Source of the DNA: Campylobacteraceae bacterium
Lineage (GTDB): Bacteria > Campylobacterota > Campylobacteria > Campylobacterales > Campylobacteraceae
NCBI GenBank assembly: GCA_031263195.1
Contig: JAISGD010000010.1
Span: 32,075-96,074, forward strand
DNA: 64,000 bases
Direction of reading: 5' to 3'
Numbering within the stretch: the stretch's first letter is position 1; each line of letters opens with the position of its first letter. Made by a program: the position numbers and the translations under genes. Positions 6,652-42,361 of the stretch are shown piece by piece. The notes under the pieces were generated by a model that was given only the letters and a program-made list of their open reading frames with translations, was not told the DNA's origin and did no database searches.

Positions 6652-6697
6652 TTTTTTTGATACAATAACAAGCTAATTTTGCAATCAAGGAATTTTA

Positions 6698-9198: not shown

Positions 9199-9199
9199 A

Positions 9200-12328: not shown

Positions 12329-12446
12329 AAATTTGCAGATTTTCATTTGACACTAAGTAAATATAGTTTTATAAATCTACATGCAATAATATTTTTGTCA
12401 TTTGCAAAAAGCAAAACAAAGTTGATTTTCTAGGTAATATATAAAA

Positions 12447-12745: not shown

Positions 12746-12749
12746 CAAA

Positions 12750-14225: not shown

Positions 14226-14557
14226 GTGATAGATTCCTCTAAAAAGTTTTTAAGGTATAGTTTATCCAAAAATATCATTTTAGTAAAATCATAATAAATT
14301 ACGGCGTGCTTTAACTTTAGACCTGTTTTTGTAGTTTTTATTTTGAAATTGATTTTGTTTCTACATGTAAGTAGATTTTTGAAATAGCTAATAAGCGTAG
14401 ATAATCAAAAAACGCTTTAAATTTCGTTTTACATGTACTCAAAAAAACAGCGAAACAACTATCTAATTTAAGCTTATATTAAGTTTTTTGAATACAAACT
14501 ATTTTTATACGTTTTAAAGTTTATATATTAAATAAGTCGTATTTCATTACTTTATTA

Positions 14558-15778: not shown

Positions 15779-15835
15779 ACAGATCCTTTATTATGGTTTT
15801 TATTTAAGTTTAGAAACGGCGCGATGAAACTCTTT

Positions 15836-16732
15836 TCAGGCAAGCAAATCCCTTAAACTGTCAAGCGGAGATTTTCCTGCTATAATCATACTAACCTCTC
15901 TTGCTATAGGCGTGTAGATCTCTCTCTCTTTTGAGATTTTGCTTATGGCGCTTGACGTTAAAACGCCTTCGGCTACCTCTCCCAACTCTTGCAAAATTTT
16001 ATCAAGTTTCATGCCTTTGGCTAAAGCCACTCCTACGCGATAGTTGCGTGAAAGCACGCTTGAAGCGGTCAAAAACAGATCTCCTGCTCCGCTAAGTCCC
16101 AAAAATGTTATCTCTTTAGCGCCAAAACTTAACCCGAATCTTTGCATTTCAACAAGTCCTCTCGCTATAAGGCTCGCTCTTGCATTAAGTCCTAAATTAA
16201 GCCCGTCGCACACTCCGCTGGCAATCGCTAAAACATTTTTATACGCGCCGCTTATCTCCGCTCCAATGATATCGTCGCCGGCGTAAGCTTTAATAAAACT
16301 CGGAAAAAACGCGCAAAACTCTTTCGCCGTTTTTTGCTTTTTGGAACTTACCACTAAAGCTGTCGGCAGCGCTTTCATAACTTCCGCGGCAAACGAAGGA
16401 CCGGAAAGACAGGCAAGATTTGAATTTGGGATAAAATCCGAAAATATCTCGTTTAAAAATCTTCCGCTGCTCTCTTCTATGCCTTTAGCGGCTATAAGTA
16501 TTTTTTGATTATTGTATTTGAAGTTTTTTCTAAGCCATTCGCTGATAATTTGTGCAGGAAGCGCCATAACGATATATTCATTATCTAACGCTTCGGCAAG
16601 ACTTACAAAATTGGGGATATCTTTTTTTGTTCTTGAGGTAATCATGCTTTTATGATTTTGCGAAAACGCGAAATGTAACGCTTGTCCCCATTTGCCGCCG
16701 CCAATTACAGCTATATTCATTTTACACGCCAA
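15836..16732 (-). CDS. gpsA: NAD(P)H-dependent glycerol-3-phosphate dehydrogenase
   Basis: N-terminal Rossmann motif ([10 protein letters not shown]), plus GPSFAAEV and NVLAIASG motifs. Confidence 0.9.
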
Positions 16733-18149
16733 GCTTTGCTTTTAAAAGTTCGTTTACTTTTGCAGGATTTGCCGCGCCTTTACTTTTCTTTATCGCTTGT
16801 CCGACAAAAAATCCAAAAAGTTTATCTTTACCCGCCTTTATCTGTTCTACTTTATCTTGGTTTTCACTCAAAACCTCGTCTATTATCACCGCTATCGCGC
16901 TATCATCGCTCACTTGTTTCAGTCCCAATCTTTCGATAGCGCTATCTACATCCTCGTCGTTTTGCATTAAAAAGTCTAAAATCTCTTTTGCCGCTTTGCC
17001 GCTTATAGTGCCATCTTCTATTCTTTTAACTAACGCGGCTAATTTATCGGCTTTAACGGGAGAGTTTTCTATCCCCACCCCACCTTCAAGACGTCCTAAA
17101 AGCTCAACGCTAAGCCAGTTTACGCTATTTTTTGCGCCTGCTCCAAACTCTATCATCTCTTCAAAGTATTTGGCTAATTCAACGGAGTTTGTGATAACTC
17201 CGGCGTCATACGGTTTAATGTTAAACTCTTTTATATAGCGAGCTTTTTTTTCATCAGGAAGTTCAGGGATTTTAACGCACTCTTCCATCATTTTATCGTC
17301 TATTATTACCGGCAATAGATCGGGATCCGGAAAATAACGATACTCCGCGCTATCTTCCTTGTTTCTCATACTCCTCGTTTCGCCGCTTTCTATATTAAAA
17401 AGCCTTGTCTCTTGCACAACCTCTTTATCATAAACCCCATCTGTCCACGCTTCGCTTTGACGCTCCACCTCATAATCTATCGCTTTTTGTATAAATCTAA
17501 AAGAGTTTAGGTTTTTTATCTCTACTCTCGTATACAGTTTTGTATCGCCTTTAGGTCTTATAGAAACGTTCGCGTCGCAGCGGAAACTACCCTCTTGCAT
17601 ATTGGCGTCGCTAATATTGAGATATCTTAGTATCGCGTGAATTTTTTTAAGATACGATACGGCTTCGTCCGAACTTCTAAGATCAGGCTCGCTTACTATT
17701 TCCAAAAGCGGAGTGCCGGCGCGATTTAGATCAACGCCGCTAAAATTCGCTTCATGCACATTTTTACCGGCATCCTCTTCCAAATGAGCTCTTGTTACGC
17801 CTATTTTTTTTGTCGAACCGTCTTTTAAATCTATATAAACTTCACCTTTTTCAACTATGGGGATTTCAAATTGACTTATTTGATAGGCTTTTGGAAGATC
17901 GGGATAAAAATAGTTTTTTCTGTTAAAAATAGAGCGTTTATTTATAGTCGCGTTGATAGCCGTTCCAAAAGCTATCGATTTTTTGACAGCTTCTTTATTT
18001 AACACGGGAAGCGCTCCTGGAAGTCCTAAACACACGGGACACACATTTGTGTTTGGTTTCTCGCCAAAACTTGTGGGACACGAACAAAAAATCTTTGTTT
18101 TTGTATTTAGTTGAGTGTGAACTTCAAGACCTATTACAACTTCAAACAT
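16722..18149 (-). CDS. gatB: Asp/Glu-tRNA amidotransferase subunit B
   Basis: Motifs [30 protein letters not shown] and [19 protein letters not shown]-terminal YqeY-like tail. Confidence 0.97.
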
Positions 18150-28574: not shown

Positions 28575-29794
28575 TGAGCGCCCCCCTCTTTTATAATTTC
28601 ACTGAAAAAATTCGCCCCCGTTTTTATCTCGTCAAGTTCTATTATTAAGTACTCACCGTCATTTTCATATATAAGAGGTATGGGGTTGCAACCGCCCGCT
28701 TTTCCGACAGAAGGCAAAAAGATCCTCACATTGCAAGATATACATATAAGTTCATCGCCATTTTTTACATACCCCATATCGCCGCAAATCATACACGCGT
28801 CAAATACGACAACAGGCGAAGTTTTACCCTTAAAACGATTTATTGCAAAAAAACGTATTTTGTGACCGTCTTCGGTTATATAAGCAAATCTATGCAAATC
28901 GTCGTCTTCCAAAAGCTTAATCGGTATTTTAAATTTACCGTCAATTGGTTCCAAAATAGTTGATTTTGAAATTTTAGGCGGTTTTGAAGCATAAAGGTCA
29001 TAATATAAAAACAGCGCACTTAAAATCAAAATAGCTGATATTACACACTTCGCGCTTGTTTTTATGTATTCTCTTTTGGCTTTTACTTGCCTGTAAACTA
29101 TGCTGCCGACACTTTTCTTTTCTGGCAAAACAGGCATATTTTTCAGATAAACTGCCAATGCTATAAATGTCAAAACAACATATAAATAGTGTGAAAACGA
29201 ACCGTAATATATTAAAATCGCCGTTATGGATAAAAACAGTGATTTTGTCTCGATAAATCTAAAACGCATCATCTCGAGCGCACTTAGACCAAAAAAATTC
29301 AACACCATCAATAGTATGCTAATCGCGCCAAGAGCGATTAATACCCATTTTGGAAGAGTTGCTGCGATACTTCTAAAAAAAATATAAAAAAAGATTATTA
29401 TTGAAATTCCAAAAACAGTAAATCCGAAAGATATAATAGATACGGTATCTAAAAGCTCGCCGTTAAAAAGTGGAAAAAATTCGGATAATACCCTGTAATA
29501 CACACCGAAACAGAAAAATAAAACTGCAATAAGAGCAATTTTCAAAACACTGAAACGACTTAAAAAAATAGCGGATAAAAACACCAAAGAGAAAATAATC
29601 GTTATAAAGCACACCGTTTTAAGCCCATCCACACTTAAAAAATCAGAGGCTATCCTAAAAGCTGCAAAAGCGAAAACTATACCGATAGATAAGCCTAAAA
29701 ACGCCTCCTTGAGAGAGATTTTTTTATTCCAAAGTGCAAGGTAAAAGGTGATTGGTAAAAATGATTGTAAAATATGATAAAAATAGACTGACAC
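28571..29794 (-). CDS. DUF2318 membrane protein with C-terminal Cys-rich domain, Cj1660-like
   Basis: About 7 TM helices, then FDACMICGDMGY...LICISCNVRIF...GGCNP. Confidence 0.8.
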   Translation of the reverse strand: MSVYFYHILQSFLPITFYLALWNKKISLKEAFLGLSIGIVFAFAAFRIASDFLSVDGLKTVCFITIIFSLVFLSAIFLSRFSVLKIALIAVLFFCFGVYYRVLSEFFPLFNGELLDTVSIISFGFTVFGISIIIFFYIFFRSIAATLPKWVLIALGAISILLMVLNFFGLSALEMMRFRFIETKSLFLSITAILIYYGSFSHYLYVVLTFIALAVYLKNMPVLPEKKSVGSIVYRQVKAKREYIKTSAKCVISAILILSALFLYYDLYASKPPKISKSTILEPIDGKFKIPIKLLEDDDLHRFAYITEDGHKIRFFAINRFKGKTSPVVVFDACMICGDMGYVKNGDELICISCNVRIFLPSVGKAGGCNPIPLIYENDGEYLIIELDEIKTGANFFSEIIKEGGAQ

Positions 29795-29981
29795 TGTAAC
29801 CCTAACTTTCTTAATTTCTAAATTTTAAATCTATCAAAAAACTCATTTTGTTGCTAAGTGTTTTTTAAAATCCACATAATAGAGTTTATAGACTTAAATT
29901 TATCTGATTTTAACGCAGTTAAAAATAGCTGCCCTGTTTTTGTCAAATCAAACGACAAAACAGGGCTAAATATAATTGAAC

Positions 29982-30515
29982 CTATTTCTTAATTCCGGTA
30001 TATTTAAAATCATACTCAACATTAAACGGTTCAAACCATTTGCCAACGCCTGTGGCTTTATCGGAATGGCGTCCAAAACCTTGAGTTTGCGGATTTTCTA
30101 TCGTATATTTGAGGTGATAGTTACCCACGCCCAACATTTTTATATTCGCGCCATAGTGAGGACCGTCAATCGCTACCATAGGCATAAATGTTCCGCTCTT
30201 TTTAGCGCCCGTATCTTTATTTGTAAGCTCATAAGATACTTTAAGGTATGGTATCCACTCTCCGTCCCCAAAACCGTTTTTGTTACCTTCTATAGCGTGA
30301 ATATCGGCTTCCAAGTGAATATCAGCTTGAGATGGAGCCAAATCTATGCCTTTTGGCTCCATATCAATCGGCTCAAGATAAACAGCGGCAATGAGCATAT
30401 TGTTTATCTCAACTTCCTCTCCTATAGGAAACTCTTTAAACTCGTCGGCTGCTGCCGCGTTTAAAACAAAAACAGTAGCTATAGCTACAAATGACCTTGT
30501 CAATAACTTGACCAT
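29982..30515 (-). CDS. p19: Periplasmic iron/copper-binding protein P19 (FetP/Tp34 family)
   Basis: 177 aa with a signal peptide and P19-like motifs (MLIAAVYLEPIDMEP, HLEADIHA, GFGDGEWIPYL, MVAIDGPHYG). Lies immediately downstream of an FTR1 permease gene. Confidence 0.92.
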   Translation of the reverse strand: MVKLLTRSFVAIATVFVLNAAAADEFKEFPIGEEVEINNMLIAAVYLEPIDMEPKGIDLAPSQADIHLEADIHAIEGNKNGFGDGEWIPYLKVSYELTNKDTGAKKSGTFMPMVAIDGPHYGANIKMLGVGNYHLKYTIENPQTQGFGRHSDKATGVGKWFEPFNVEYDFKYTGIKK

Positions 30516-30565
30516 GTTCTCTCCTTGTTAAAATATGTTTTTATCAAAAATCTAAAAACCAAAAC

Positions 30566-32518
30566 CTATTTCGCGTTTGCGCGGACTTTTTTGTTTTCCG
30601 TTTTATCGCCGTTTTCACAATCATCTTTTGTTTTTTTAGCCCTGCTTCTTATTAGTATTGTTCCTATAATAATTCCTAAAATCAACGCTATTTGAGGCAA
30701 TAAACTCTGCACATAAGGATATATTCCAAGCCACGTAATAGTTGGGAATCCTTCTATAATGGTAGGTTCTATAATTTTGCCTTCAACCAATTCCATAATG
30801 CCTTTTCCCGTAAAAACCACCGACATGTAGAATATAATCGCGCTTGTTATAATAAAAAACGGTTTTATAGGTATTTTAACCGCTCCGGCTTTGAGAAGAA
30901 AAAATAAAATCGTAAGAAGCGCTAAACCTATGACAAGACCTACAGCTACCGCACTATATCCAAGCGCGTTTTTAGCGTCAAAAAGTATCGCTTGATAAAA
31001 TAAAACAGTTTCAGCGCCTTCTCTGTATACAGCCAAAAATACCGTAAACCAAAGAGCTTTTGCCGAACCGCTGCTAAGAGAATCTCTAACTTTTCCGGAT
31101 ATATATCGCGCCCATTTTTTCGCGTGGGCATTCGACAAAAGCCAAAATCCGACATAAAACAGTAAAAGTACGGCTATTAGCATAGTCACGCCTTCAAGCA
31201 TCTCTCTTGATTCTCCCGAAGCGTTAAAAAGATAATTCATAACAAAAGCAGTCGCGAAGCTAAGAATTATAGCTGTCCAAAGCGAACTATGAACGATACC
31301 TATTCTATCGCCGTTACCACTTTTGATAAGATAAGCTATAACTGCCGCGACAACTATCAACGCTTCAACGCCTTCTCTTAATATAATGATTAAAGCGTAA
31401 ATAAACAACGACCACGGCGTACCGGAATCCGACAGTTTCACAACCCCGCTCTCCACTTCACTGTAGAGTTTTTCTAAAGCCCACTCCACCTTATCTATAT
31501 CTGCGCCGCTTTTTATAAGAGCGGTTATTTCGCTGAAAGTACCCTCTATAGTCGTTTTTAGTCCATTGTCAACCGCGCCTACGCGCACTTCCATACCGCT
31601 TGCTTCAAATATATCAAAATAAGCGTTTTGTATTGTACTTATCGCTTTTTTGCTATCCCCACCCTTATATAATTCAAGTGTTTTCGCACCCTCTTTCTTG
31701 ACATCTTCCAATACAACTTTGAAATCTTGTCCTTGCTCCCCCACAGTATCCGCTTCAACATCAACCACAGCAAGCTCAGCTGCCTCTTTGGGAAGTTCAT
31801 TCAGTACGTTTAAGATATCATCTTCTATTTTGACAAGCTCAGTTCTAAGCTCAGTTTCGTTTGTCATAGAGTCTACAGCGATAATAACGCGGCGTATGTT
31901 ATTTTGTATCTGTCCGTCTTTTGCTTGAGATACATATTTGCGTATCGCGACCTCCATCATACTATTTCTATAATCCTCAAACTGAGCGGCTCTTATCAAC
32001 TCTTTAGTTTTTGTCCTGTCGCCGCTTTTAAACGCCTCAATAGAAGCTTGCAGCTTATCTGCTATATTATTATGTAAAGTCTGCCATTTCACGTCAAGAG
32101 TCTCTTCATTAACCGTATCGCTTTGCGTAGTCTCCGCCACTATAACCGTGCCGTCTTTAAGCTTTGGCAATACTTCATCCATATCGGCGTTGAGACTGTC
32201 TATCGTAGCTTTAATCTCCTCTACGTTCGCACCATCTTTAATGAGATTTCTTATTTTGGTAAATTTTCTCTCCATAGTCCACGATTTTTTACTTGAGACA
32301 TTTATCCTAATCGGACCTTCCAAATTTTCAAATAGTTCAAAATATGCGCTTTGCGCGACCTCTCTGGCTTCTTCTGCCTTACCGTCTTTATAAAGTTCAA
32401 GACTGCTCGCGAAACGCTCTTTTACTCTATTGGTCAAATCCTCGTAATCATAAGTTCTGGCATTCAAAACAAATGGAATGGCTAAAAAAATGAGTAGGAT
32501 TTTGACTATTTTTTTCAT
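30566..32518 (-). CDS. ftr1: FTR1-family high-affinity iron permease with a long N-terminal periplasmic domain
   Basis: 650 aa. The C-terminal 7-TM region carries two REGxE motifs (LREGVEAL, YREGAETV). Its arrangement with p19 matches cj1658-cj1659. Confidence 0.9.
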   Translation of the reverse strand: MKKIVKILLIFLAIPFVLNARTYDYEDLTNRVKERFASSLELYKDGKAEEAREVAQSAYFELFENLEGPIRINVSSKKSWTMERKFTKIRNLIKDGANVEEIKATIDSLNADMDEVLPKLKDGTVIVAETTQSDTVNEETLDVKWQTLHNNIADKLQASIEAFKSGDRTKTKELIRAAQFEDYRNSMMEVAIRKYVSQAKDGQIQNNIRRVIIAVDSMTNETELRTELVKIEDDILNVLNELPKEAAELAVVDVEADTVGEQGQDFKVVLEDVKKEGAKTLELYKGGDSKKAISTIQNAYFDIFEASGMEVRVGAVDNGLKTTIEGTFSEITALIKSGADIDKVEWALEKLYSEVESGVVKLSDSGTPWSLFIYALIIILREGVEALIVVAAVIAYLIKSGNGDRIGIVHSSLWTAIILSFATAFVMNYLFNASGESREMLEGVTMLIAVLLLFYVGFWLLSNAHAKKWARYISGKVRDSLSSGSAKALWFTVFLAVYREGAETVLFYQAILFDAKNALGYSAVAVGLVIGLALLTILFFLLKAGAVKIPIKPFFIITSAIIFYMSVVFTGKGIMELVEGKIIEPTIIEGFPTITWLGIYPYVQSLLPQIALILGIIIGTILIRSRAKKTKDDCENGDKTENKKVRANAK

Positions 32519-32542
32519 AAAAACTCCAAAATATAAAGATAT

Positions 32543-32560
32543 TGATTATCAAAATGATAA
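32543..32560 (-). promoter_or_regulatory. Fur-box-like AT-rich inverted repeat just upstream of ftr1
   Basis: TGATTATCAAAATGATAA lies 25-42 nt upstream of the ftr1 start codon and resembles GATAAT/ATTATC hexamer arrays. Confidence 0.5.
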
Positions 32561-32611
32561 AATATTAAATGGTAATTTTATCCTCTAAAAGCTTTATAAA
32601 TGATTAAAACG

Positions 32612-32624
32612 GATAATCATTATC
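32612..32624 (-). promoter_or_regulatory. Fur box half-consensus
   Basis: GATAATCATTATC is an exact match to the last 13 nt of the classical 19-bp Fur box GATAATGATAATCATTATC. It lies about 95 nt upstream of ftr1. Confidence 0.6.
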
Positions 32625-32795
32625 AAATTTTGGATGAAAAGATCGATATTGTCGAATTCTAAAAGAAAAAAGATAAGACAAATTCAGAGCATAAAAACGC
32701 CATATTTTTAAAACGTAAACTACACTAAAAGCTCTATTTTAACCGATAAAGATTTTAATCCAAACATTTATAAACGTAAAAACTAAAAAACTACT

Positions 32796-33593
32796 CTAAT
32801 ATCTTTGATTTGTCAAAAATTGCAAATAGTCACTGATATTAATGAGTGAAAATGTAACTAAAAATATCATAAGACCAGGGAAAAAACTAACCCACCAAGC
32901 GATATCTATAACCTCTTTACCTTCCGATATGATACTTCCCCAGCTTATATCCGGCGGCATAACGCCGATTCCTAAAAAACTAAGTCCGCTTTCGGCTAAT
33001 ATCGCTCCGCTAAGCGAAAAGGTAAAACTTATAAAAAATATGGGAGCTAAAAGAGGAGCGAAGTATTTAAATATGATTTTTGGTTTTGACACGTCAGCTA
33101 ATTTCAATACTTTTATAAACGGCTGCGAATTTATAGCAAAACTCTCGCTTCTGATTAACCTCGCCATACTCATCCATCCGGTTACCGATATAACGATAAT
33201 AAGCGTTAAAGCCGAAGCGTTTATATAACTTATAAGCGCCAGTAAAAGAAAAAACGTTGGAAAAGTAAGAAACAAGTCTATTATTACCACGATAATCTTA
33301 TCTGTGTTTTTCGCGAAAAATCCAGCGCTTATTCCTATAACAAGACCTGTAAAACTCGCTATCGCAGCGCTGCAAAATCCTATAAAAAGCGACACTTTCC
33401 CGCCTTCGATTATTCGGGCTAATATATCTCGTCCAAGTCTGTCCGTGCCTAAAATATGCGAAAAACCAGGCGCTTGCAAAAGTTCTTTGGAATTCATATC
33501 ATAAGGCGACAAAGGATATATAAAACTTCCCAAAAACGACAATAAAACTATAAAAGCCAAAACCGCAAAACTCGCTATAGGCGCTTTTTTCAT
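32796..33593 (-). CDS. DppC/OppC-type ABC transporter permease (no cognate partners adjacent)
   Basis: 265 aa with LGTDRLGRDILARIIEGGKVSL and an EAA-like loop. Confidence 0.8.
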   Translation of the reverse strand: MKKAPIASFAVLAFIVLLSFLGSFIYPLSPYDMNSKELLQAPGFSHILGTDRLGRDILARIIEGGKVSLFIGFCSAAIASFTGLVIGISAGFFAKNTDKIIVVIIDLFLTFPTFFLLLALISYINASALTLIIVISVTGWMSMARLIRSESFAINSQPFIKVLKLADVSKPKIIFKYFAPLLAPIFFISFTFSLSGAILAESGLSFLGIGVMPPDISWGSIISEGKEVIDIAWWVSFFPGLMIFLVTFSLINISDYLQFLTNQRY

Positions 33594-33637
33594 ACTTATG
33601 TTTCCCGCAATTTGTAAAAATATCTTTTTAAAACTCT

Positions 33638-34219
33638 TTACATGTAATAGCTTATTGAACTATTTCCAAAAGTTTTCCTCTTTAAAAGTTTAAAATCTTT
33701 TATGAAGTTTGGCATTTCAAAAGCGCTTACATGTTCAAACGCGGCAAGTTTTACTTTTGATTTTGGCAAAGAGGCAAACAGCTCTATAGCCTTTTCGTAA
33801 ATATCGCTCATTCCATCTCTTATGTCAAATGGCGGGTCAAAATAGAAAAACGCCGCTTTTTCTAAGCTTTGCGCGATTTGAGGAAGTCTAATAAACGTAT
33901 CGTCTAAAAAGCAGATGGTTTTTAAAGCGTCTACATTCTCGCAATTTCTTTTCAAAGTGCCAAATGCCGCTTTGTCCTTTTCTATAAAATAAGCCTTTTT
34001 AGCTCCGCGGCTTAACGCCTCAAGCCCCATACTTCCGCTTCCCGCGAACGCTTCTATGAAAGTAGCGTCTATGATATCAAACTGAACGGTATTAAAAAAC
34101 GATGATTTTAGTATCGCTTTTGTACTTCTTGTCGTATCTTTTGAGGGCAAAAACAGCTTTTTACCTTTAAATTTGCCTCCCAAAATGGTTACATGTAAGC
34201 TCTTTTGTGTCAATTTCAA
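33638..34219 (-). CDS. rsmD: 16S rRNA (guanine966-N2)-methyltransferase
   Basis: Motifs ILGGKFKGKKL...TRSTKAILKSSFFN, FAGSGSMGLEALSRGA and FDPPF. I prefer the TTG at 34219, preceded by AAGGAAA. The track ORF reaches an upstream ATG at 34258. Confidence 0.85.
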   Translation of the reverse strand: MKLTQKSLHVTILGGKFKGKKLFLPSKDTTRSTKAILKSSFFNTVQFDIIDATFIEAFAGSGSMGLEALSRGAKKAYFIEKDKAAFGTLKRNCENVDALKTICFLDDTFIRLPQIAQSLEKAAFFYFDPPFDIRDGMSDIYEKAIELFASLPKSKVKLAAFEHVSAFEMPNFIKDFKLLKRKTFGNSSISYYM

Positions 34220-34369
34220 ACGTTTCCTTATGAAAAATATCGGACAAAATTGTAACATACTTTCATGAAGCCATATGTCAAAAGCTTTAAAAAAGTAAAA
34301 ATAAGGGGTTTATAATCGTTTTTTAAATATCCTATTGCTTTGCATAATTTAAATAAATTTGGAGTTTTT

Positions 34370-36172
34370 ATGAAGCAAATTTTAATGGGTAATGAAGCTA
34401 TAGCGTTAGCGCTTATGCATTCAAATATTCAGATGATTTCCGGATATCCCGGAACTCCTTCCAGCGAAATTATTACTAACTATCAAAAATTAATAAACAA
34501 ATACGATATAGACGCTTACGCGCAATGGGCGACAAACGAGAAAGTAGGTTTTGAAGTAGCGTACGCGGGAGCAATATCCGGAAAAAGAGCGTGCGCGACT
34601 ATGAAGCAGGTAGGTCTTAATGTGGCAAGCGACGCATTGATGAGCGCGGCTTATATCGGAAACACGGGGGCTATGCTTTTGATAAGCGCGGATGATCCTG
34701 GGTTTTATTCATCCCAAACCGAACAAGACAGCAGAAGTTTCGCTAAATTCGCAAAAATTCCGGTATTTGACCCCTCAACTCCGCAAGAAGCTTACGATAT
34801 GACAAAAACGGCTATAGAACTTTCCGAAAAATTTCAAACTATCGTTATGCTTCGTCCGGTTATGAGAGTATGCCATGCGAGAGAAATTTGCGAAGTAGAT
34901 GAAATACACGAATTTACCGCGCGCGAAGGTGACTTTAAAAGAGACGCTTCAAGATGGGCTGCCGTGCCAAGAGGCGGAAGATTTTCTCAAGGCATAGAGC
35001 AGATAAAACGCATAGAAGAGTTGAAACGTTACAATTACGAAATATTTATAGAGCCTAAACTAAAAGATTTGAAAAACAATAAAACGCTTTGCCTAACATG
35101 CGGAACAGGCGACGGTTACGCGAAAGAGTGTTTAAAGGAAACCGGTATAAACGCCGATATTCTAAAGATTGATATGCCCTATCCTTTGCCCAAAAACGAG
35201 CTTGAAAAGTTATTTGAAAAGTATGAATTCGTAATCATTTTTGAAGAGAGTTATCCATGTATGGAAGAACAACTCTCAAGCGATAAAATACGCGGTAAGA
35301 TGACAAAAGACGTACATGTAATAGATGAATTTACAAAAGAGAAAGTTTTACAAACATTTATAAATATAGGACTTTGGAATAAAGAGAATATTTATAAAAA
35401 CGAACATTACGATAAAGAGTTGCCATCTCGTCCTCCAAATCTATGCCCCGGCTGTCCTCATAGAGATATATATTTCGCCATTAAAAAGACGTTTCGCGAA
35501 AAAAGCTCTATATTTCCTTCGGACATCGGCTGTTATACCTTAGGACTTAATCAAAACGCTATCGATTTGGTTTTATGTATGGGGGGAAGCATTGGAGCCG
35601 CCAGCGGTTTTGGCATAGCCGATCCGAAAAAGACAGTGATAGCGACTATAGGCGACAGCACGTTTTTACATGGCGGAATTCCGGCTCTAATAAACGCGGT
35701 ATATCAAAAACATAAATTTATCCTGGTCATTATGGATAACTCCACAACGGCGATGACTGGACGCCAAACGACGCCGGAGCGCGCCGCGCCTGAGAGCATT
35801 GATATAAAACGCATAGTAGAAGGTTGCGGGGCTGTTTGTTTTGAATATCTATATAAACCGGATATCAAAGAAACGATAGCCTTTATGAAAGAGTTGAAAA
35901 AAAAGCTTGAAAACGCAAGCGGTCCTATTGTGGCGGTTATGAGAGAGTTTTGCATACTTGATAAAGAGCGCTCATTTGAGTTTTTGCCAAATACTAAAGC
36001 TAAAGTCAATCAAGATAAATGCATTACATGTAATGAGTGTATAACCAAGCACAACTGCCCCGCTTTCAGATATAATGAAAACGGTAAAGTTGAGGTTGAT
36101 TCGTTTTTATGCGTAGGATGCGCGGCATGTATAAACGGATTGTGTCCTACAAACGCATTTGAATTGGCATAA
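34370..36172 (+). CDS. iorA: Indolepyruvate:ferredoxin oxidoreductase alpha subunit
   Basis: Motifs MGNEAIALA...GYPGTPSSEI, a TPP-binding GDSTF...H motif, and a C-terminal 2x[4Fe-4S] ferredoxin motif (CITCNECI...CPA / CVGCAACI). ATG at 34370 behind GGAG. Confidence 0.9.
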   Translation: MKQILMGNEAIALALMHSNIQMISGYPGTPSSEIITNYQKLINKYDIDAYAQWATNEKVGFEVAYAGAISGKRACATMKQVGLNVASDALMSAAYIGNTGAMLLISADDPGFYSSQTEQDSRSFAKFAKIPVFDPSTPQEAYDMTKTAIELSEKFQTIVMLRPVMRVCHAREICEVDEIHEFTAREGDFKRDASRWAAVPRGGRFSQGIEQIKRIEELKRYNYEIFIEPKLKDLKNNKTLCLTCGTGDGYAKECLKETGINADILKIDMPYPLPKNELEKLFEKYEFVIIFEESYPCMEEQLSSDKIRGKMTKDVHVIDEFTKEKVLQTFINIGLWNKENIYKNEHYDKELPSRPPNLCPGCPHRDIYFAIKKTFREKSSIFPSDIGCYTLGLNQNAIDLVLCMGGSIGAASGFGIADPKKTVIATIGDSTFLHGGIPALINAVYQKHKFILVIMDNSTTAMTGRQTTPERAAPESIDIKRIVEGCGAVCFEYLYKPDIKETIAFMKELKKKLENASGPIVAVMREFCILDKERSFEFLPNTKAKVNQDKCITCNECITKHNCPAFRYNENGKVEVDSFLCVGCAACINGLCPTNAFELA

Positions 36173-36181
36173 GGAGAAAAA

Positions 36182-36721
36182 ATGAAATACCAAGTGGTAA
36201 TAGCCGGTTTTGGCGGTCAAGGCGTCGTATTTTTAGTCAAAGTTCTCTCCATCGCTTCAAGTCTTAAAAACGAAAAATGTTTAGGAACTGAAAATCACGG
36301 CATGAGCCAAAGAGGCGGTTCGGTATCATGTTATGTAAAAATAGGCGATTTTAGTTCTCCTGCCATAGACGAAGGGCAAGCCGATTTACTTATAGCGTTG
36401 GAGGGCAACGAGGCTCTTAGAAATATTCAGTTTTTGCAAGCGCAAAATGGAGTAATAGTAGTAAACGCCGACAAAAATTTTCCGAAATTAAATTATAAAA
36501 CTATAAAAATAGACGCGTTTTCAAAAGCAAATCAAAATATTTTCAATATACAAGCATTGAACGTTTATATGCTTGGCATTTGCCTGGCTCGCGCGCAAAA
36601 TTTCCCTTTCACGCAAGAGGATATAGAAAAAGCCATACATGTAATGAATGAAAAAGTTGCCGATAAAAATATCATAGTTTTGCGTCAAGCTATAAAGGAC
36701 GCGAATGAGGAGGATGTATGA
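36182..36721 (+). CDS. iorB: Indolepyruvate:ferredoxin oxidoreductase beta subunit
   Basis: 179 aa with GFGGQGV..., typical of the 2-oxoacid oxidoreductase gamma-like domain. Adjacent to iorA. Confidence 0.85.
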   Translation: MKYQVVIAGFGGQGVVFLVKVLSIASSLKNEKCLGTENHGMSQRGGSVSCYVKIGDFSSPAIDEGQADLLIALEGNEALRNIQFLQAQNGVIVVNADKNFPKLNYKTIKIDAFSKANQNIFNIQALNVYMLGICLARAQNFPFTQEDIEKAIHVMNEKVADKNIIVLRQAIKDANEEDV

Positions 36722-38013
36722 TTTGGTCAAAAGAGGAGTCTTTGTCGCGCGATGAAATGTTCGCGCTTCAAAGTAAAAGGCTGCAAGATACCGTATCAAA
36801 AGTTTACGAGAAAGTGCCGTTTTACAAACGTAAATTTGACGAGCTTGGCATAAGCGCGCAAGATATCAAAACTATAGCTGACATAGCGAAGCTGCCTTTT
36901 ACGAAAAAGCAGGATTTGCGTGATAATTATCCGTTCGGACTTTTCGCCGTTGATAATTCCGAGCTTATCAGGATACACAGTTCCAGCGGCACTACAGGCA
37001 AACCAACCGTCGTAGGCTATACAAAGTCCGACATAGACGTTTGGGCTGAAGGAGTTGCAAGAGTGCTTACAATGGGCGGTATCACAAAAAATGATATTGT
37101 ACATGTAGCTTACGGATACGGGCTGTTTACGGGCGGTTTGGGTCTTCACGACGGAGCTACTAAAGTCGGCGCGACCGTTGTGCCAAGTTCGGGGGGATTT
37201 ACCTCAAGACAAGCGATGCTTTTAAAGGATTTTGGCGCAAGCGCGCTTGCTTGCACTCCAACGTTTGCTATGCATATTTTGGAAACCGCGCTTCATGAAG
37301 GATACGAACCGAAAAAAGATTTTAAACTAAAAGCCGGATTTTTTGGCGCGGAACCTACAAGCCGAGGGTTAAAAGATGAATTGGCAAATGGCTTAAATAT
37401 CAGCTATCACGACATCTACGGACTTTCGGAGATAATAGGTCCGGGGGTTGCGGGCAATTGCAAATACAGTAAAGATTTGCATATATTTGAAGATCACTTC
37501 TACCCTGAAATAATTGACCCGAACACTTTGGAAGTGCTGCCGTACGGAGAAAAAGGCGAACTTGTTATCACTTCTTTGACAAAACAAGCTCTTCCGATTA
37601 TCAGATACAGAACGGGCGACGTGACTATACTAAATCCTGAAGTTTGCAAGTGCGGCAGAACGCAGGTGCGCATGAAAAACATTATGGGCAGAGTTGACGA
37701 TATGTTGATTGTAAACGGTGTGAACGTATTTCCGTCTCAAGTTGAACATGTATTGTCAAATATAGATGAGATTACGCTCAATTATCAAATCATCGTTGAT
37801 AAAAAAGGCTATCTTGACAAACTTGACGTTATGGTCGAAGTCACGGAAGATATGCCAATGGACAGTATAGGCGCGCTTGAGAGAGTACAAAAAAAGATAC
37901 AAAACGAGCTTTTGAGCAATCTTTATATTCACGCTAATGTCAAATTGGTTGAGCCAAGGACTATTGAACGTTCGCAAGGAAAAGCTGTGCGCGTTGTTGA
38001 TAAAAGGAGTTAA
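36718..38013 (+). CDS. paaK: Phenylacetate-CoA ligase family adenylate-forming enzyme
   Basis: Motifs SSGTTGKPTVV, YGLSE and RYRTGD. 431 aa. Confidence 0.9.
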   Translation: MIWSKEESLSRDEMFALQSKRLQDTVSKVYEKVPFYKRKFDELGISAQDIKTIADIAKLPFTKKQDLRDNYPFGLFAVDNSELIRIHSSSGTTGKPTVVGYTKSDIDVWAEGVARVLTMGGITKNDIVHVAYGYGLFTGGLGLHDGATKVGATVVPSSGGFTSRQAMLLKDFGASALACTPTFAMHILETALHEGYEPKKDFKLKAGFFGAEPTSRGLKDELANGLNISYHDIYGLSEIIGPGVAGNCKYSKDLHIFEDHFYPEIIDPNTLEVLPYGEKGELVITSLTKQALPIIRYRTGDVTILNPEVCKCGRTQVRMKNIMGRVDDMLIVNGVNVFPSQVEHVLSNIDEITLNYQIIVDKKGYLDKLDVMVEVTEDMPMDSIGALERVQKKIQNELLSNLYIHANVKLVEPRTIERSQGKAVRVVDKRS

Positions 38014-38015
38014 AA

Positions 38016-38444
38016 ATGAAATATTTCGTCAAACAACTTACGGTATTTTTAGAAAATAAACCCGGAGAGCTTGCCTCTTTCACCCATATTTTAAGCGGTA
38101 AAAATGTCAATATCAAATCTTTGATATTGGTGGAATCCACAGAATACGGACTGGTACGCGCTATTGTAGACAATCCGCAAAAAGCAAAAGCCGTACTGGA
38201 GAGTGCGGGACTCAGCGTAAGATTTAGCGACGTTTTGGCTGTCAAAATAAAAGACGAGGTAGGAAGTTTTGACAGGATAGTAACGATTTTGAGTAAAAAT
38301 AGCATTAATATCCTATATACTTATAGTTTTTACTCCACAAACAGCGGTATTTTCATCTTTAGCGTTGATAATTTGCAAAAGGGTATTGACGCGCTTTTGG
38401 AGGCAAAAGAAAATGTTTTGGAAGCAGCGTATTTTTATGAGTAA
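38016..38444 (+). CDS. ACT domain-containing protein
   Basis: 142 aa with two ACT-like beta-alpha-beta-beta-alpha-beta repeats (LTVFLENKPGELA...). This is the usual fourth gene of iorAB-paaK clusters. Confidence 0.8.
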   Translation: MKYFVKQLTVFLENKPGELASFTHILSGKNVNIKSLILVESTEYGLVRAIVDNPQKAKAVLESAGLSVRFSDVLAVKIKDEVGSFDRIVTILSKNSINILYTYSFYSTNSGIFIFSVDNLQKGIDALLEAKENVLEAAYFYE

Positions 38445-38477
38445 GTGACGTAATATGATTAAAAAATTTTAATTTAT

Positions 38478-38828
38478 TTATAAAAAGCGGTGCAATTTAC
38501 ATCGAAAGTCCTTATTTTTAATTAAATCAAGAAATGATTTTATTCGTGCAGGTTCTTTTTTGAAAAATTGTGTTACTTTGACTTTGGAAAGCAAAGAAAA
38601 CAAATCATTTGCATCAACTCTTATTGCATATAGCCCAACAACTAGCCTTAAATAAACATTGTGCCTGAACCGCAAAAAGGGTCTAAAACAGTTGCGCTTT
38701 TATGTGCAAACTGCTTTATCATCGTGTGCGGCAGTTGCGGCGGGAACTTTGCAGGATATGGGTGCAAAGAATGGTGTTAAGTACATTGTGTCGCTGTTAT
38801 AGAAGTCAAAATCTATATTGTAATTCAT
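38478..38828 (-). pseudogene. Frameshifted, 3'-truncated DNA (N6/N4) methyltransferase remnant
   Basis: My own three-frame reading gives three pieces. First, ATG 38828 MNYNIDFDFYNSDTMYLTPFF, ending in a stop. Second, after a +1 shift, LHPYPAKFPPQLPHTMIKQFAHKSATVLDPFCGSGTMFI*. Third, ...GLYAIRVDANDLFSLLSKVKVTQ.... This covers the AdoMet motif I (DPFCGSGT) region only. No catalytic (D/N)PPY part follows. Confidence 0.65.
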
Positions 38829-38855
38829 TGTCTTATTATTTTACTTTGCTCATTA

Positions 38856-41477
38856 TCAGTTATTATATTGTACGTTTTTAAGGTCTTCTTTTAGCCTTTT
38901 AAAATCAGTTATTTGCTGTTCTAATATTTCAGGGCTTGGAATAATACCAAATTCATCAGAAGGCAAATGTCCTTCTATCAAATTCGATATTTCTCCGTGC
39001 TTTTCAACAACTGTTTCAATAAGCGTTTTTTCAAATTTTATTTCTTTTAATCTTCCCATTCTTATTTGAGGGTCGAAACGTTGTACTGTTCCTCCTAAAA
39101 TAGTAAAAATAGCCAAGGCTTCATAAGAAGCCCTTAATGCCGCCAGGCCTGCTTTGGAATAATCAATTCTTTCATTTCCATTGGTAATTTTACTTTTTCT
39201 CAACCATTCTTCTGCTTTTGTAGGGTCGTTATATTGCCCTTCATTTGCAGGGCTTGTATTTGCTACAACTTTTCCACAAATTTGATTATCACGTTCCAAA
39301 GTGTGGTGAATAAAACTATTCTCAATGCCATTCAAATACTTTTTACTAAAATTTTTGAGGTGGTAAAAGAAAATTAAATCATGTGTAAGTATGATTACTT
39401 GTTTTGAAGTTGCTTGTAGTGCCAGCCTTTCCGCAATTTGTTTTTTTCTATCGTTATCCAATGAATTTACAGGGTCATCGAAAATTAGCCCTCTGTTTAT
39501 TTCAGACATTTGGAGTTCAGCAAGAAAATCTGCAATAGCAATCACTTTTTGTTCGCCTTCGCTTAATACTGCATTAGGATTTTGCCCTTTTAATTTGAGT
39601 TGTCTGTAAGATTTTCCTTGTGTACCTGTATGATTGACTTCTATTCCGAAATTTCCGTTGAGTTTTTGACACTCGTTATTGAAAGTATCAATATATTTTT
39701 GGTTAAAATACTTGTTTGATAATGTTTTTTCGGCATTTGTTATTATCCGTTTTGCATAATCAGCATTGTGTGCTTTTTTTATCCAAACTTGATTATTGAC
39801 ATAAGTTTCAAATTTTGGAAAATGCGTATTGAATTTTTCTTTGTGTTCTAAAAATGTTTTTGCATTCAATAATTTTTCTAACTCCTTACTTTGTTCATCT
39901 TCCGTTAGATTTTTGATTAAAGCATCGACAGCCGTTTCAATCGCTGCGTGTTGTTCAACTCCTATTTCTATTGCTATTCTTTCATTTGCTGTTTTGCTTT
40001 GAATATCGGAAATAATATTTTTAGCAAGTGTTTTTTGTTCTGAAAGTTTTCGGTTCAATGCTACCAATTCGTCAGGATATTTTTCAGTTAACCAAACAGT
40101 AAGTGTATTGTCTTGTGGAAACAAGTCAAAATTTAAACTTTCATAACTTTGTTTTGCTTTGTCAAGCGTTTCTTGTGCCTGTTTTGCCTTTTGCTCCATA
40201 ATGCTTTTTATGAAAGTCCAATAGTTGGAAATTAGTTGTTTTGCATTATCCGAAAGTAGTTGTTGGCAAAATAAACAATTGTCGCCATTTTCAGGATAAA
40301 CAGCATTTCCTGTTTTCTGTGTTTTAGCAAATTCCTCGGCGGAAATAATAAAATTTTTCCATTCGATTGCTCCTACTCCTTGTATCTTGTCGGTTTTAAA
40401 ATTTTCAATACTTTCTGCTTTTGCTGTGGTTTCTTTTGAAATACAATCAGTAATTACTGATTGTATTTTTACAATCATTTCGATTGTAAAAAACTGATTA
40501 AGTTTTTCAATATCTTGCTTGTTTTTAGCCAGTAAGGTTTTGATATTTCCAAGTTTTTTTATTTCATTTTCTTTTCCTTTTAACGCCAATAGAAGTTCGT
40601 CATATTGTTTTTGTATCGTCTCTTTTTGGGTTTTATCATCATCAGAAAAAGGTGTGTATTTTTTCAAATCGTCATAAATATTTGTTTCCGCATTCAGATT
40701 TTGAACAATCGCTTTAATTTCCGAATTGCCGTCAAACAAGGCGGATAAATCATTTGCTGTATTTCCTAATTGTTTGGTTTGAATATCGGTATTTAGTTTT
40801 TCTTCAACTCGATTAATAGCACTTGTGTAATTTGCAAAAAAACTCAATCCCGCAGGGCGAAATTCAAATTCGTTTTTTTCAGCAAGTTGTTTAAATAAAC
40901 CTTTTCCATCAAAGACTGCAAATTGTTCAAATTCGGTATTATCTCTATTCGTAATAAATAACACTGTTTCAATATTATTTGATTTAAAAGTAAATTTTGC
41001 ATTAATAGATTTGTGCTCGTTTTCAATATTAATATTCGGCAAAATATCTTCGGGATATTTTGAATAAAAAACATTTTTCAAAAGCCTTACATAACCCGAC
41101 TTTCCCGAGCCATTTGCACCATAAATGATTGTGAGGTTTGGACTAAATTCTATTGTTTGATTTTCGGTTAAGGCGTTTACACCTTCAACATTTTCAAGTT
41201 TTGCAAGAAGTAAATCAGATTTGTATTGTCCTGCATTTATAATATTATAATCAATGGTGATTTCTGACTTTTCAGTTTCTTCTTTAATTTGCAATAATTC
41301 AAGCAAATAAGAATACGAGGTATCAATATAATTTTCAGAAACGGCGTTACCCGATAAAATTTTCTCTGCAAGAAATTTTGCCCAATAAGGCAGTTCGTTA
41401 GCAAATCTCTTTACTTCCGTTTCAAGCGTTTCTGCTTGTATGTGTATGTTTTCGATATTGTTATTTTCTTCATTCAT
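38856..41477 (-). CDS. AAA_13 (PrrC/RloC-like) ATPase with coiled-coil insert; candidate anticodon nuclease / abortive-infection protein
   Basis: 873 aa. Walker A YGANGSGKSG (~41.10-41.13 kb), then ~450 aa of heptad-rich K/E/Q/L sequence with a central CLFC (~40.27 kb). ABC signature LSEGEQKVIAIADFLAEL, Walker B LIFDDPVNSLD and ILTHD follow. The C-terminal ~190 aa contain LRASYE (R-x3-E) and downstream His residues (EKHG, NLIEGH), reminiscent of the PrrC Arg-Glu-His triad. Noticeably more AT-rich than the flanks (by eye). Confidence 0.72.
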   Translation of the reverse strand: MNEENNNIENIHIQAETLETEVKRFANELPYWAKFLAEKILSGNAVSENYIDTSYSYLLELLQIKEETEKSEITIDYNIINAGQYKSDLLLAKLENVEGVNALTENQTIEFSPNLTIIYGANGSGKSGYVRLLKNVFYSKYPEDILPNINIENEHKSINAKFTFKSNNIETVLFITNRDNTEFEQFAVFDGKGLFKQLAEKNEFEFRPAGLSFFANYTSAINRVEEKLNTDIQTKQLGNTANDLSALFDGNSEIKAIVQNLNAETNIYDDLKKYTPFSDDDKTQKETIQKQYDELLLALKGKENEIKKLGNIKTLLAKNKQDIEKLNQFFTIEMIVKIQSVITDCISKETTAKAESIENFKTDKIQGVGAIEWKNFIISAEEFAKTQKTGNAVYPENGDNCLFCQQLLSDNAKQLISNYWTFIKSIMEQKAKQAQETLDKAKQSYESLNFDLFPQDNTLTVWLTEKYPDELVALNRKLSEQKTLAKNIISDIQSKTANERIAIEIGVEQHAAIETAVDALIKNLTEDEQSKELEKLLNAKTFLEHKEKFNTHFPKFETYVNNQVWIKKAHNADYAKRIITNAEKTLSNKYFNQKYIDTFNNECQKLNGNFGIEVNHTGTQGKSYRQLKLKGQNPNAVLSEGEQKVIAIADFLAELQMSEINRGLIFDDPVNSLDNDRKKQIAERLALQATSKQVIILTHDLIFFYHLKNFSKKYLNGIENSFIHHTLERDNQICGKVVANTSPANEGQYNDPTKAEEWLRKSKITNGNERIDYSKAGLAALRASYEALAIFTILGGTVQRFDPQIRMGRLKEIKFEKTLIETVVEKHGEISNLIEGHLPSDEFGIIPSPEILEQQITDFKRLKEDLKNVQYNN

Positions 41478-41870
41478 ATCATTTTACCCCCTCCATTTTA
41501 CTTTACGAAATATTACCACAAAAGAGCAATTTTGGTTGGTGTAAAAAACACTAATCGCCCTAAATAATTAATCGGTCTATTTTTATAAAAAATAAGATAA
41601 TCGTAAACCAAATTTTATTGTAAATAACTATATCGTTAAAATAAAGAGTAAAAAATATATAAACTGGGGTGCAAAACTATTTACTTCATTGCATTTATTT
41701 TTTAATTTATAGCCATCCATATTGTGTATACTATAAAGTCGTGTATAATTTTGCAAAAATTGTGAATTACTTACAAGTAATATTAAAAAATATAGAAATA
41801 ATCTATTATATCCAATAAATAAAATAAGTGATAAGCATTATAAGTCTAGTAAAATTTTTACAAAAAGTCT

Positions 41871-41900
41871 GAAAGGCAGTAAAATTATTTACTACCTTTC
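41871..41900 (-). terminator. Probable terminator hairpin downstream of ridA
   Basis: GAAAGGCAGTAAA-atta-TTTACTACCTTTC forms a 13-bp stem with 1 mismatch, 75 nt past the ridA stop. On the minus strand it is followed by AGACTTTTTG. Confidence 0.45.
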
Positions 41901-41974
41901 GATTAAACAGTATTATTTTTCAGGAATCCCCACAAAGTGTAGCTTTGAATTAAAACCATTTTATTTAAGCGACA

Positions 41975-42361
41975 TCATTTTTTTGTCTTGCGAACCGCAG
42001 TTACCTCGATCTCCACAAACCACGCGGGATTTGCGAGTGCGGCGACTTGAACAACAGATCTTGTTGGTAGATTTGGCTGCTCTTTCGTGCCAAAAAATTT
42101 ACGATACCCATTCATAAACCCGTCAAAATCCATCTTTCCCGAAAGCTTTGGATCGCCCACTAAAAAGACTTGCATTTTAATAACATCGCCCATTTCCAAA
42201 CCAAGACTTTTTAAGGTTTTATCAATGCTTGCAAGCGAACTGATAGTCTGCTCTTCCGTATTGCCATACGCTTCAACCGATCCTTTTGTAGCATTTATAA
42301 TTGTCGGTACAACGCCGCTTAAATTAACAACAGTCGCGTCGGATGGAATCTCTACCGCCAT
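41975..42361 (-). CDS. RidA/YjgF family reactive-intermediate deaminase
   Basis: 128 aa with the family-typical core (QTISSLASIDKTLKSLGLEMGDVIKMQVFL...PTRSVVQVAAL...VEIEVTAV). Confidence 0.85.
   Translation of the reverse strand: MAVEIPSDATVVNLSGVVPTIINATKGSVEAYGNTEEQTISSLASIDKTLKSLGLEMGDVIKMQVFLVGDPKLSGKMDFDGFMNGYRKFFGTKEQPNLPTRSVVQVAALANPAWFVEIEVTAVRKTKK

Follow-up and report, generated by a model that had tools for sequence, protein, structure and literature searches.

The window considered here is a stretch of 64,000 nucleotides (nt) from a Campylobacteraceae bacterium (assembly GCA_031263195.1, contig JAISGD010000010.1, positions 32,075 to 96,074). Its block 38445-41974, 3.5 kb in length, contains one intact ATPase gene and one broken methyltransferase frame, both on the minus strand. 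On the left lies an ACT-domain gene, the last of an iorA-iorB-paaK-ACT operon, which ends at 38444 (plus strand), and on the right ridA-radA-ftsY follow from 41975 (minus strand). An earlier note, made from the letters of the sequence, had singled out this block as a defence islet carrying an orphan relative of the ATPases PrrC and RloC, and the protein encoded by its intact gene is the main concern of the present analysis. The features of the islet are the following (aa, amino acids; GC, guanine plus cytosine).

38856..41477, minus strand: intact gene of an RloC-like ABC ATPase of the PDC-S06 type, 873 aa, stop codon included, recognised by PADLOC and by Pfam AAA_13.
41214..41477, minus strand: N-terminal extension, aa 1-88, with a three-helix bundle at aa 18-61, matched only by PDC-S06 profiles.
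40848..41213, minus strand: N-lobe of the ABC head, aa 89-210, with Walker A GANGSGKS at nt 41097-41120 and Q-loop Q185.
39663..40847, minus strand: helical coiled-coil insert, aa 211-605 (~395 aa), with an apical CLFC at nt 40266-40277 as zinc-hook candidate.
39369..39662, minus strand: C-lobe of the ABC head, aa 606-703, with signature LSEGEQ, Walker B/D-loop LIFDDP..SLD and H-loop THD.
38859..39368, minus strand: C-terminal helical domain, aa 704-873 (170 aa), a putative effector, with R782-x3-E786, R800, H837, S840 and D841.
38478..38828, minus strand: pseudogene of an N4/N6 DNA methyltransferase, N-terminal ~116 codons, Pfam N6_N4_Mtase E=8.3e-10.
41478..41870, no strand: non-coding upstream region, 24-28% GC, in which the ATPase gene has its GGAGG ribosome-binding site and promoter-like sites.

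The DNA of the islet is foreign to its host. Its GC content of 30.5% is lower than that of the window (36.8%) and of the adjoining core genes (about 40-44%), and its tetranucleotide profile correlates with that of the rest of the window at 0.87-0.89, while the left and right flanks correlate with each other at 0.97-0.98. Since the profile of the islet deviates while those of both flanks agree, it is the islet that is foreign and not the contig that is chimeric. A chimeric contig as the cause of the junction is thus ruled out by the matching flanks and also by an independent Logan assembly of SRR14710921, which is identical across window positions 28856-42053 and crosses both islet junctions. 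No integrase was found in the islet or its flanks, and the search for flanking direct or inverted repeats that might serve as att sites returned only short AT-rich matches of the kind expected by chance. Composition, tetranucleotide profile and repeat search therefore bear out the original description of an AT-rich foreign islet that lacks an integrase and clear att repeats.

The 873-aa open reading frame is intact and carries all the motifs that had been quoted for it, namely GANGSGKS (aa 120-127), CLFC (401-404), LSEGEQ (638-643), LIFDDP (664-669), THD (698-700), LRASYE (781-786) and EGH (835-837). Two of the domain lengths first given needed correction, as the N-terminal domain comprises ~88 aa and not 110, and the helical insert ~395 aa and not 450. 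Relatives were collected by a scan of one genome per species, which gave 546 loci; the best 80 were examined, and conservation was assessed in an alignment of the 71 full-length relatives among them, down to 37% identity. Residues G120, N122, G123, G125, K126 and Q185 of the N-lobe are invariant in all 71, as are S639, E640, G641, E642, D667, D668, P669, H699 and D700 of the C-lobe, and both C401 and C404 are present in every one. In the C-terminal domain (C-domain) E786 is found in 71/71 relatives, H837 in 70/71, R782 in 69/71 and R800 in 68/71, and S840 and D841 are conserved as well. The same R782, E786, R800 and H837 are kept in four plasmid-borne members at 21-26% identity, from Shewanella, Bradyrhizobium, Arsenophonus and Rhizobium, and even these retain the motif P-x-W...R-x-L of the N-terminal extension.

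Structure prediction agrees with this conservation. In the full-length AlphaFold2 model (mean predicted local distance difference test score, pLDDT, of 69) the N-terminal extension forms helices at 18-27, 31-41 and 48-61 with pLDDT 80-92, and the insert runs through helices 279-328, 332-355 and 371-387 to the C401/C404 loop and returns through 410-446, 468-494 and 508-570. The model thereby shows an antiparallel helical arm of ~395 aa that is predicted to split a Rad50/SMC-type ABC head and to bear the invariant CxxC at its apex. Among structures compared by Foldseek with the full-length model, Rad50 (7zr1) was the best match (E=7.5e-7), SMC heads and RecN were also found, and the defence ATPases PtuA, AriA, LmuB and JetC were among the top structural matches. 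A sequence search of the PDB matched the ATPase head to Rad50 and to AriA, the latter being best (E=6.6e-5). The Rad50-like split head, the coiled coil and the apical CxxC proposed from the letters are accordingly supported by conservation, AlphaFold2 and Foldseek alike.

The part of the gene that encodes the coiled-coil arm also contains a perfect 30-nt palindrome, AAATACAATCAGTAATTACTGATTGTATTT, at 40439-40468 (aa 337-346). It is unique to the window's copy, the relatives being self-complementary at just 6-18 of the 30 positions, and among 300 codon shuffles none reached an arm of 15, the maximum being 11.

The protein is almost certainly a member of the PDC-S06 family. The PADLOC profile PDLC04891 matches it with E=2.6e-113 over aa 20-867 and profile positions 5-854 of 858, and the other PDC-S06 profiles PDLC04893, PDLC04888 and PDLC04892 match with E from 1e-96 to 4e-76. 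AAA_13 membership, which had been suggested from the motifs, was confirmed by Pfam (PF13166, E=2.9e-17, 63.1 bits against a cut-off of 36, aa 117-726); SMC_N, AAA_23 and AAA_21 match the ATPase as well. In the PADLOC scan at E<=1 only PDC-S06 and generic ABC-ATPase families were returned, and PrrC was not among them. The PADLOC group lists PDC-S06 as a single-gene system and calls its PDC families untested candidates. The window's protein is structurally indistinguishable from this family; PDC-S06 is listed as single-gene, yet the closest relatives are embedded in multi-gene restriction-modification (R-M) operons. An identical protein is already annotated as 'AAA family ATPase [Campylobacteraceae bacterium]', from a Campylobacteraceae metagenome-assembled genome.

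RloC was defined by Davidov and Kaufmann in 2008 as a protein of 658-897 aa with ABC motifs, a coiled-coil insert with CXXC and the triad Arg-X3-Glu-X36-52-His (PMC2610378), and all four features are present here: 873 aa, the ABC motifs, the insert with CxxC and R782-x3-E786-x50-H837. The published landmarks of GkaRloC from Geobacillus kaustophilus (K44, D572, R692, E696 and H737) have their counterparts in K126, D667/D668, R782, E786 and H837, with an offset of 82 at the Walker A lysine and of about 90-100 elsewhere, which fits an N-terminal extension of ~82-88 aa together with small internal length differences. The orthologue table of 2008 moreover includes proteins of 869-874 aa from Bacteroidetes, Chlorobi and Proteobacteria, some beside Type III restriction genes, and by size, taxa and context these entries are likely to belong to the same clade as the window's protein. 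With a Chlorobaculum member as query, the named 2008 orthologues were not among the best 120 matches listed; a 50-kb stretch of Shewanella sp. ANA-3 plasmid 1 contained no AAA_13 gene, and the search for a solved structure of RloC or PrrC found none. The rloC gene of G. kaustophilus is also flanked by the relic of an R-M gene (hsdR). The islet is thus real and largely as first described, but it belongs to a kind already known, because PDC-S06 has been catalogued, the protein conforms to the RloC definition and an orphan beside an R-M relic has its precedent in the Geobacillus rloC. The suggestion of a new variant is met by that catalogue and by the 869-874 aa forms of the 2008 table, and the proposed new N-terminal sensor is a three-helix extension found family-wide and not special to this copy.

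Likeness to RloC, represented by GkaRloC and by AbaRloC of Acinetobacter baylyi, extends over size class, split head, CxxC and triad, and RloC too is occasionally linked to Type I or III R-M genes and often solitary, on mobile DNA or beside R-M relics. The window's protein differs from RloC by its extra 88-aa three-helix N-terminal extension and by a C-domain that has neither detectable profile or fold similarity beyond PDC-S06 nor an R-x4-6-H motif. R-M linkage is also much more frequent, at least 31% among the relatives of the window's protein compared with 8/73 for RloC, and a dedicated helix-turn-helix (HTH) gene lies upstream. PrrC shares the N-terminal ABC ATPase domain followed by a C-terminal R-x3-E...H triad, and in two relatives (L057 and L065) the ATPase gene is placed between hsdS and hsdR, as in PrrC. 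PrrC proteins are only half the size, 341-416 aa, without coiled coil or zinc hook, whereas the window's protein has 873 aa and a coiled coil. PrrC is furthermore always linked to a Type Ic system (EcoprrI), kept silent by that enzyme and switched on by the Stp peptide of T4, while the gene in the window is solitary.

The C-domain has an evolutionary behaviour of its own. At a common identity of 70-77% over the core, aa 96-703, there are 12 loci with a ~80% identical C-domain (variant 1) and 58 in which it is ~25% identical (variant 2), the window's C-domain being of the minority variant 1. Identity collapses within 20 residues after the H-loop, which places the module boundary at about aa 700. 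The difference is also evident inside one and the same cassette of HTH, ATPase, Mod and Res genes: aa 96-703 are 76-78% identical to the window's throughout, and aa 704-873 are only 24-25% (L009, L011, L012 and L015) or 81-83% (L001 and L010) identical. From these comparisons the C-domain appears to be swapped as a module at a fixed, recombination-like junction right after the H-loop. The Type III cassette accompanies variant 1 at 3/12 loci and variant 2 at 9/58, and since both variants occur with it the swap does not follow the restriction partner.

Both variants retain R782, E786, R800 and H837. In 48 of the 58 variant-2 members the last of these stands within C-C-R-Y-M-E-G-H, a canonical HEPN R-x4-H, which supports a HEPN-like origin of the domain family. 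Variant 1 has Asp or Asn at position 832 in 13/13 proteins, the window's included, and Arg in none of the 13. An exhaustive search with the C-domain profile gave 865 clusters at 50% identity, and the best 150 were all ~860-aa proteins of the same architecture or fragments thereof, with no PrrC-sized carriers among them. The isolated C-domain was modelled by AlphaFold2 as a helical bundle (pLDDT 71), and in its Foldseek list the HEPN toxins 7ae6, 1jog, 6m6u and 1o3u are scattered among generic four-helix and cytochrome b562-like bundles. Three things thus speak for an RNase role: polar residues that are conserved, agreement with the published motif and the HEPN motif of variant 2. Of the R-x3-E...H triad noted earlier, the conservation and the agreement with the RloC formula stand, while the domain itself is not recognised as a PrrC, RloC or HEPN nuclease.

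After the identical protein the next best matches are at 75-79% identity, and those with names are from Riemerella, Epilithonimonas, Empedobacter, Sphingobacterium and other Bacteroidota. Because the nearest named relatives are Bacteroidota and the composition of the islet deviates, the sequence evidence argues for a cross-phylum transfer that lost its restriction context. What this context may have looked like is indicated by the relatives. At 14 of the best 80 loci, including the closest relatives L001 (79% identity) and L010 (76%), the ATPase gene is part of a Type III cassette in which an XRE-type HTH gene ends ~36 nt upstream and a 540-565-aa Mod-like N6_N4 methyltransferase (Mod) follows, mostly 8-27 nt downstream or, at a few loci, with an overlap of up to 15 nt with the ATPase stop. 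Nine of the 14 also have Res, a ResIII helicase-nuclease of 834-841 aa, and three have a gene for an HD-CE and GHKL-ATPase protein. None of this is left in the window: the upstream region holds no remnant of the HTH gene that 14 relatives have before the ATPase, no remnants of HTH, Mod or Res genes lie in the islet flanks, and hsd genes are not found within the window.

R-M genes lie within three genes of the ATPase at 25 or more of the 80 loci, and 55/80 are without a recognised R-M partner at that range. Type I loci are represented by L057 and L065, with the order hsdM-hsdS-ATPase-pAgo-x-hsdR (pAgo, prokaryotic Argonaute), and by L029, with hsdM-hsdS-YhcG-hsdR downstream. Further R-M contexts are a BsoBI-type Type II pair (L025), Dam-like methyltransferases and C5 methyltransferases, and singleton neighbours include ResIII, Mrr, D12, MmeI, TIR and SMODS genes, with pAgo and Dsr1 also near relatives. 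Many PDC-S06 genes stand alone, in defence islands or on plasmids. The family is mobile, as shown by integrase, relaxase and TraG-like genes near relatives and by 202 plasmid records that carry relatives.

Two of these neighbourhoods deserve separate mention. The HD-CE and GHKL-ATPase (HATPase_c_3) protein, of ~818 aa and paraMORC-like, recurs beside the ATPase in L015, L045, L049 and L078 and sits between the Type III mod and res genes in L040, L050 and L058. In L057 (Galbibacter sp., 5225-16916) and L065 (Autumnicola tepida) a 763-aa Piwi-domain Argonaute and a 286-aa protein are embedded before hsdR.

The second frame of the islet is, as had been proposed, the N-terminal fragment of a dead methyltransferase, with HPYPAKFPPQL...VLDPFCGSGT covering motifs X to I. 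The damage is more extensive than the single frameshift and stop first reported and consists of two frameshifts and a stop. The fragment starts 27 nt after the stop codon of the ATPase gene on the same strand, and its 3' end is cut off 33 nt from the ACT gene, each distance being one nucleotide shorter than originally given (28 and 34). Its relatives share 50-70% aa identity in alignments from Met1, and the longer ones, 189-195 aa and ended by contig edges, run past the end of the window's copy. In plasmid methyltransferases of 464-500 aa the match to it lies in the N-terminal third, and in those of 464 aa at aa ~80-176.

The closest relative of the stub, at 80% nt identity from 13 nt upstream of the start codon, is L177 (1-1084 of Joint Genome Institute metagenome contig Ga0123354_10316522). 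There the methyltransferase gene is separated by 4 nt from the preceding gene, which encodes a different ABC-type ATPase with the motifs LSHGQQG, DQPEDDLD and VSHN that is not a PDC-S06 member. In L173-L175, L178 and L180 methyltransferases of the stub type come after other methyltransferases. It was considered whether the stub relatives could be contig-end fragments downstream of PDC-S06 ATPases, and this was ruled out since they are preceded by other methyltransferases or by the different ABC ATPase. The family of the stub also differs from the Mod type beside the closest ATPase relatives. Because the stub is of another type than Mod and its nearest relative trails another ATPase, the islet is a mosaic, and whether the stub methyltransferase and the ATPase were ever partners is uncertain. 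Of the earlier idea, the dead methyltransferase is confirmed, and the loss of an R-M context is supported by the operons of the relatives; the stub itself is not of the Mod type.

Taken together, we favour, with a probability of about 0.6, the explanation that the islet was acquired horizontally as a piece of a defence locus and that its sole working gene encodes a long RloC-like PDC-S06 protein acting in the manner of RloC and PrrC. The mechanism is drawn from the biochemistry of these two proteins (PMC2610378, PMC3458546, PMC3874168). The protein would dimerise via its zinc hook and head, and the ATPase would sense a sign of phage attack, either DNA ends or a disabled restriction enzyme; the sign sensed is linear or broken DNA for the Geobacillus RloC and loss of the restriction partner for PrrC. 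ATP hydrolysis would then switch on the C-terminal domain, which would act as a metal-independent RNase cutting the anticodon loops of tRNA, so that translation stops and the infection is aborted. In this genome the protein may act alone, like most RloC genes, or together with R-M systems encoded elsewhere. The earlier note had built on silencing by a linked R-M system, which is documented for PrrC; the internal switch of RloC depends on DNA and not on R-M (PMC3874168), and since RloC activation does not need R-M genes a solitary copy can plausibly work alone. The parts of this explanation are not equally firm. A defence role of the ATPase is quite probable, while RNase or anticodon-nuclease activity of the window's particular variant is given near-even odds at best.

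Several observations weigh against this explanation, and most of them concern the C-domain. It is not recognised as a nuclease by Pfam, NCBIfam, PHROGs or, PDC-S06 aside, PADLOC, and neither of the isolated terminal domains, N or C, has a match beyond PDC-S06 in these four collections. The C-domain profile gives matches only at chance level against PDB sequences, and Foldseek against the PDB gives no significant match to its model, the best E being 0.8. At the site of the HEPN motif the window reads S-N-L-I-E-G-H837, with N832, at the -5 position, in place of the HEPN arginine, so that no R-x4-6-H is present. The Pfam AAA_13 match covers profile positions 20-596 of 713 and leaves the C-terminal fifth unmatched. 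In RloC a Ser often precedes the His of the triad (PMC2610378), and the residue before H837 is Gly; several of the long RloC orthologues are flagged in the 2008 table as having poor or suboptimal triads. Finally, the literature searched presents PDC-S06 as a computational prediction only, with no experimental validation reported.

The lack of a detectable nuclease signature in the C-domain would also be expected if the protein were a sensor or regulatory ATPase without a nuclease of its own and its C-domain an adaptor that docks onto Mod/Res, Hsd or another effector, on the model of Rad50 and Mre11, AriA and AriB, or PtuA and PtuB. The partnerless copy in the window would then be useless or dependent on unlinked R-M systems. 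The tight packing of the closest relatives with Mod and Res (gaps of 8-27 nt), with the XRE-type HTH gene in front, speaks for such a function, and modular exchange of the C-domain would suit a partner-specific adaptor too. The structural neighbours point the same way: PARIS AriA, Septu/retron PtuA, Lamassu LmuB and Wadjet JetC have related heads and a common logic of abortive infection by an ATPase sensor and an effector, and in all of them the nuclease (TOPRIM, HNH or another) is a subunit of its own. Unlike in those systems, where the effector is separate, the candidate effector here is fused C-terminally and no conserved effector gene accompanies the PDC-S06 ATPase; many members are solitary, and most loci (55 of 80) are without a recognised R-M partner within three genes. 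The C-domain variant is moreover independent of the type of partner, both variants occurring in the same Type III cassette, polar residues (R, E, R, H, S and D) that stay invariant even at 21% identity would be more usual in an active site than on an adaptor surface, and the sister variant carries the HEPN R-x4-H. On balance we regard an adaptor role as unlikely. About equally unlikely is the proposition that the long PDC-S06 clade is not an RloC-type anticodon nuclease but a distinct class of restriction-embedded sentinel. The N-terminal three-helix domain could in that case monitor the neighbouring enzyme, be it Type III or Type I, or else detect an anti-restriction protein from a phage, the C-domain could be a cassette-exchangeable effector in two ~25% identical forms, and the form in the window could use a different active site (R782/E786/R800/H837), possibly with a target other than tRNA anticodons.

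A further possible explanation is that the gene is an inert relic, intact by chance after recent transfer and decaying like its methyltransferase neighbour. That neighbour is already a pseudogene, the HTH gene found before the ATPase in 14 relatives is missing, the arginine of R-x4-H is lacking from the C-domain and the coding region holds a 30-nt palindrome unique to this copy. Yet an open frame of 2,622 nt at 30% GC is unlikely to persist without selection, AT-rich DNA being rich in stop codons in the other frames; every family-invariant motif residue is kept, the start codon has a good Shine-Dalgarno sequence and promoter-like sites ahead of it, and Asp or Asn at position 832 throughout the variant-1 proteins marks a lineage trait and not damage to the window's copy. 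We therefore consider a relic improbable. Far more improbable still is a housekeeping ATPase of the Rad50/SbcC type, engaged in DNA repair or chromosome maintenance and not in defence, even though Rad50 and SMC are the best structural matches and split ABC head, long antiparallel coiled coil and zinc-hook-like apical CxxC are common to the Rad50/SbcC/SMC proteins and this one. The arm is much shorter here, no nuclease partner of the Mre11/SbcD type is found in the window or beside the relatives, and there are extra domains at both ends, the C-terminal one being absent from Rad50/SbcC (PMC2610378). The setting of PDC-S06 is also mobile or in defence islands rather than housekeeping, with a patchy cross-phylum distribution on plasmids, conjugative elements and defence islands, and the composition of the gene is foreign.

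The non-coding stretch 5' of the ATPase start comprises 497 nt in total and includes a promoter-like site at 41834-41805 (minus strand, 10/12 matches), and a terminator-like hairpin of ridA at 41900-41871 marks the host side; the right end of the islet is somewhere within 41478..41870. In paaK relatives (PaaK identity 72-75%) the order iorA-iorB-paaK-ACT is kept and is then followed by a second paaK and unrelated genes, with no ridA-radA. The order iorA-iorB-paaK-ACT-paaK2 is present in 6/7 related contigs (L084, L085, L088, L090, L091 and L095), paaK2 being a paralogue that shares 62-64% identity with paaK of the window. No paaK2 is present in the window, and because the relatives have it where the window has the islet, the islet sits at a rearranged junction without paaK2. 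An empty site was not found via the paaK relatives, in which synteny with ridA-radA is not kept, and the islet ends are thus not definable by this comparison.

The statement that the islet contains no ACATGT is true but carries no signal, as 0.82 sites are expected and P(0)=0.44. Besides ACATGT, with its count of 0, 50 of the 64 palindromic hexamers are likewise absent from the islet, and scarcity of ACATGT is not islet-specific either, since the 22 kb to its right have only 2 sites. Avoidance of ACATGT as an R-M footprint of the islet is therefore ruled out, being neither significant nor confined to it. In the window as a whole ACATGT is 3.7-fold over-represented, with 35 observed against 9.5 expected, mostly within the 8-mer TACATGTA, of which there are 25 copies. 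All 25 copies of TACATGTA and 33/35 of ACATGT lie to the left of the islet (1396-37746), with four sites clustered at 1396-1577. The 22 kb to the right have no TACATGTA, compared with ~14 expected at the left-hand density, despite the matching tetranucleotide profiles of the flanks. Other hexamers are avoided window-wide, with 1 observed against 39.8 expected for TTCGAA, 0 against 8.8 for ACTAGT, 0 against 8.1 for GGCGCC and 0 against 7.3 for CGGCCG, which suggests that restriction systems were active in the past of the host lineage; none is encoded in the window.

The interest of these observations is at the level of the family and not of the window. Their practical value is that they point to an abundant family known from predictions, with more than 540 genome loci, 202 plasmid records and 865 C-domain clusters. 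The N-terminal extension, the tight Type III embedding with an XRE-type regulator and the swappable C-domain in two forms set the family apart as a subject, and the exchange of this domain at a fixed junction, with the HEPN-like R-x4-H in one form and not in the other, is, alongside the Type III embedding, a clear and testable family feature. If the explanation favoured here is true, the islet would be a further instance of a familiar theme, in which a restriction-linked backup defence gene that disables translation crosses phyla and outlives its decayed restriction partner.

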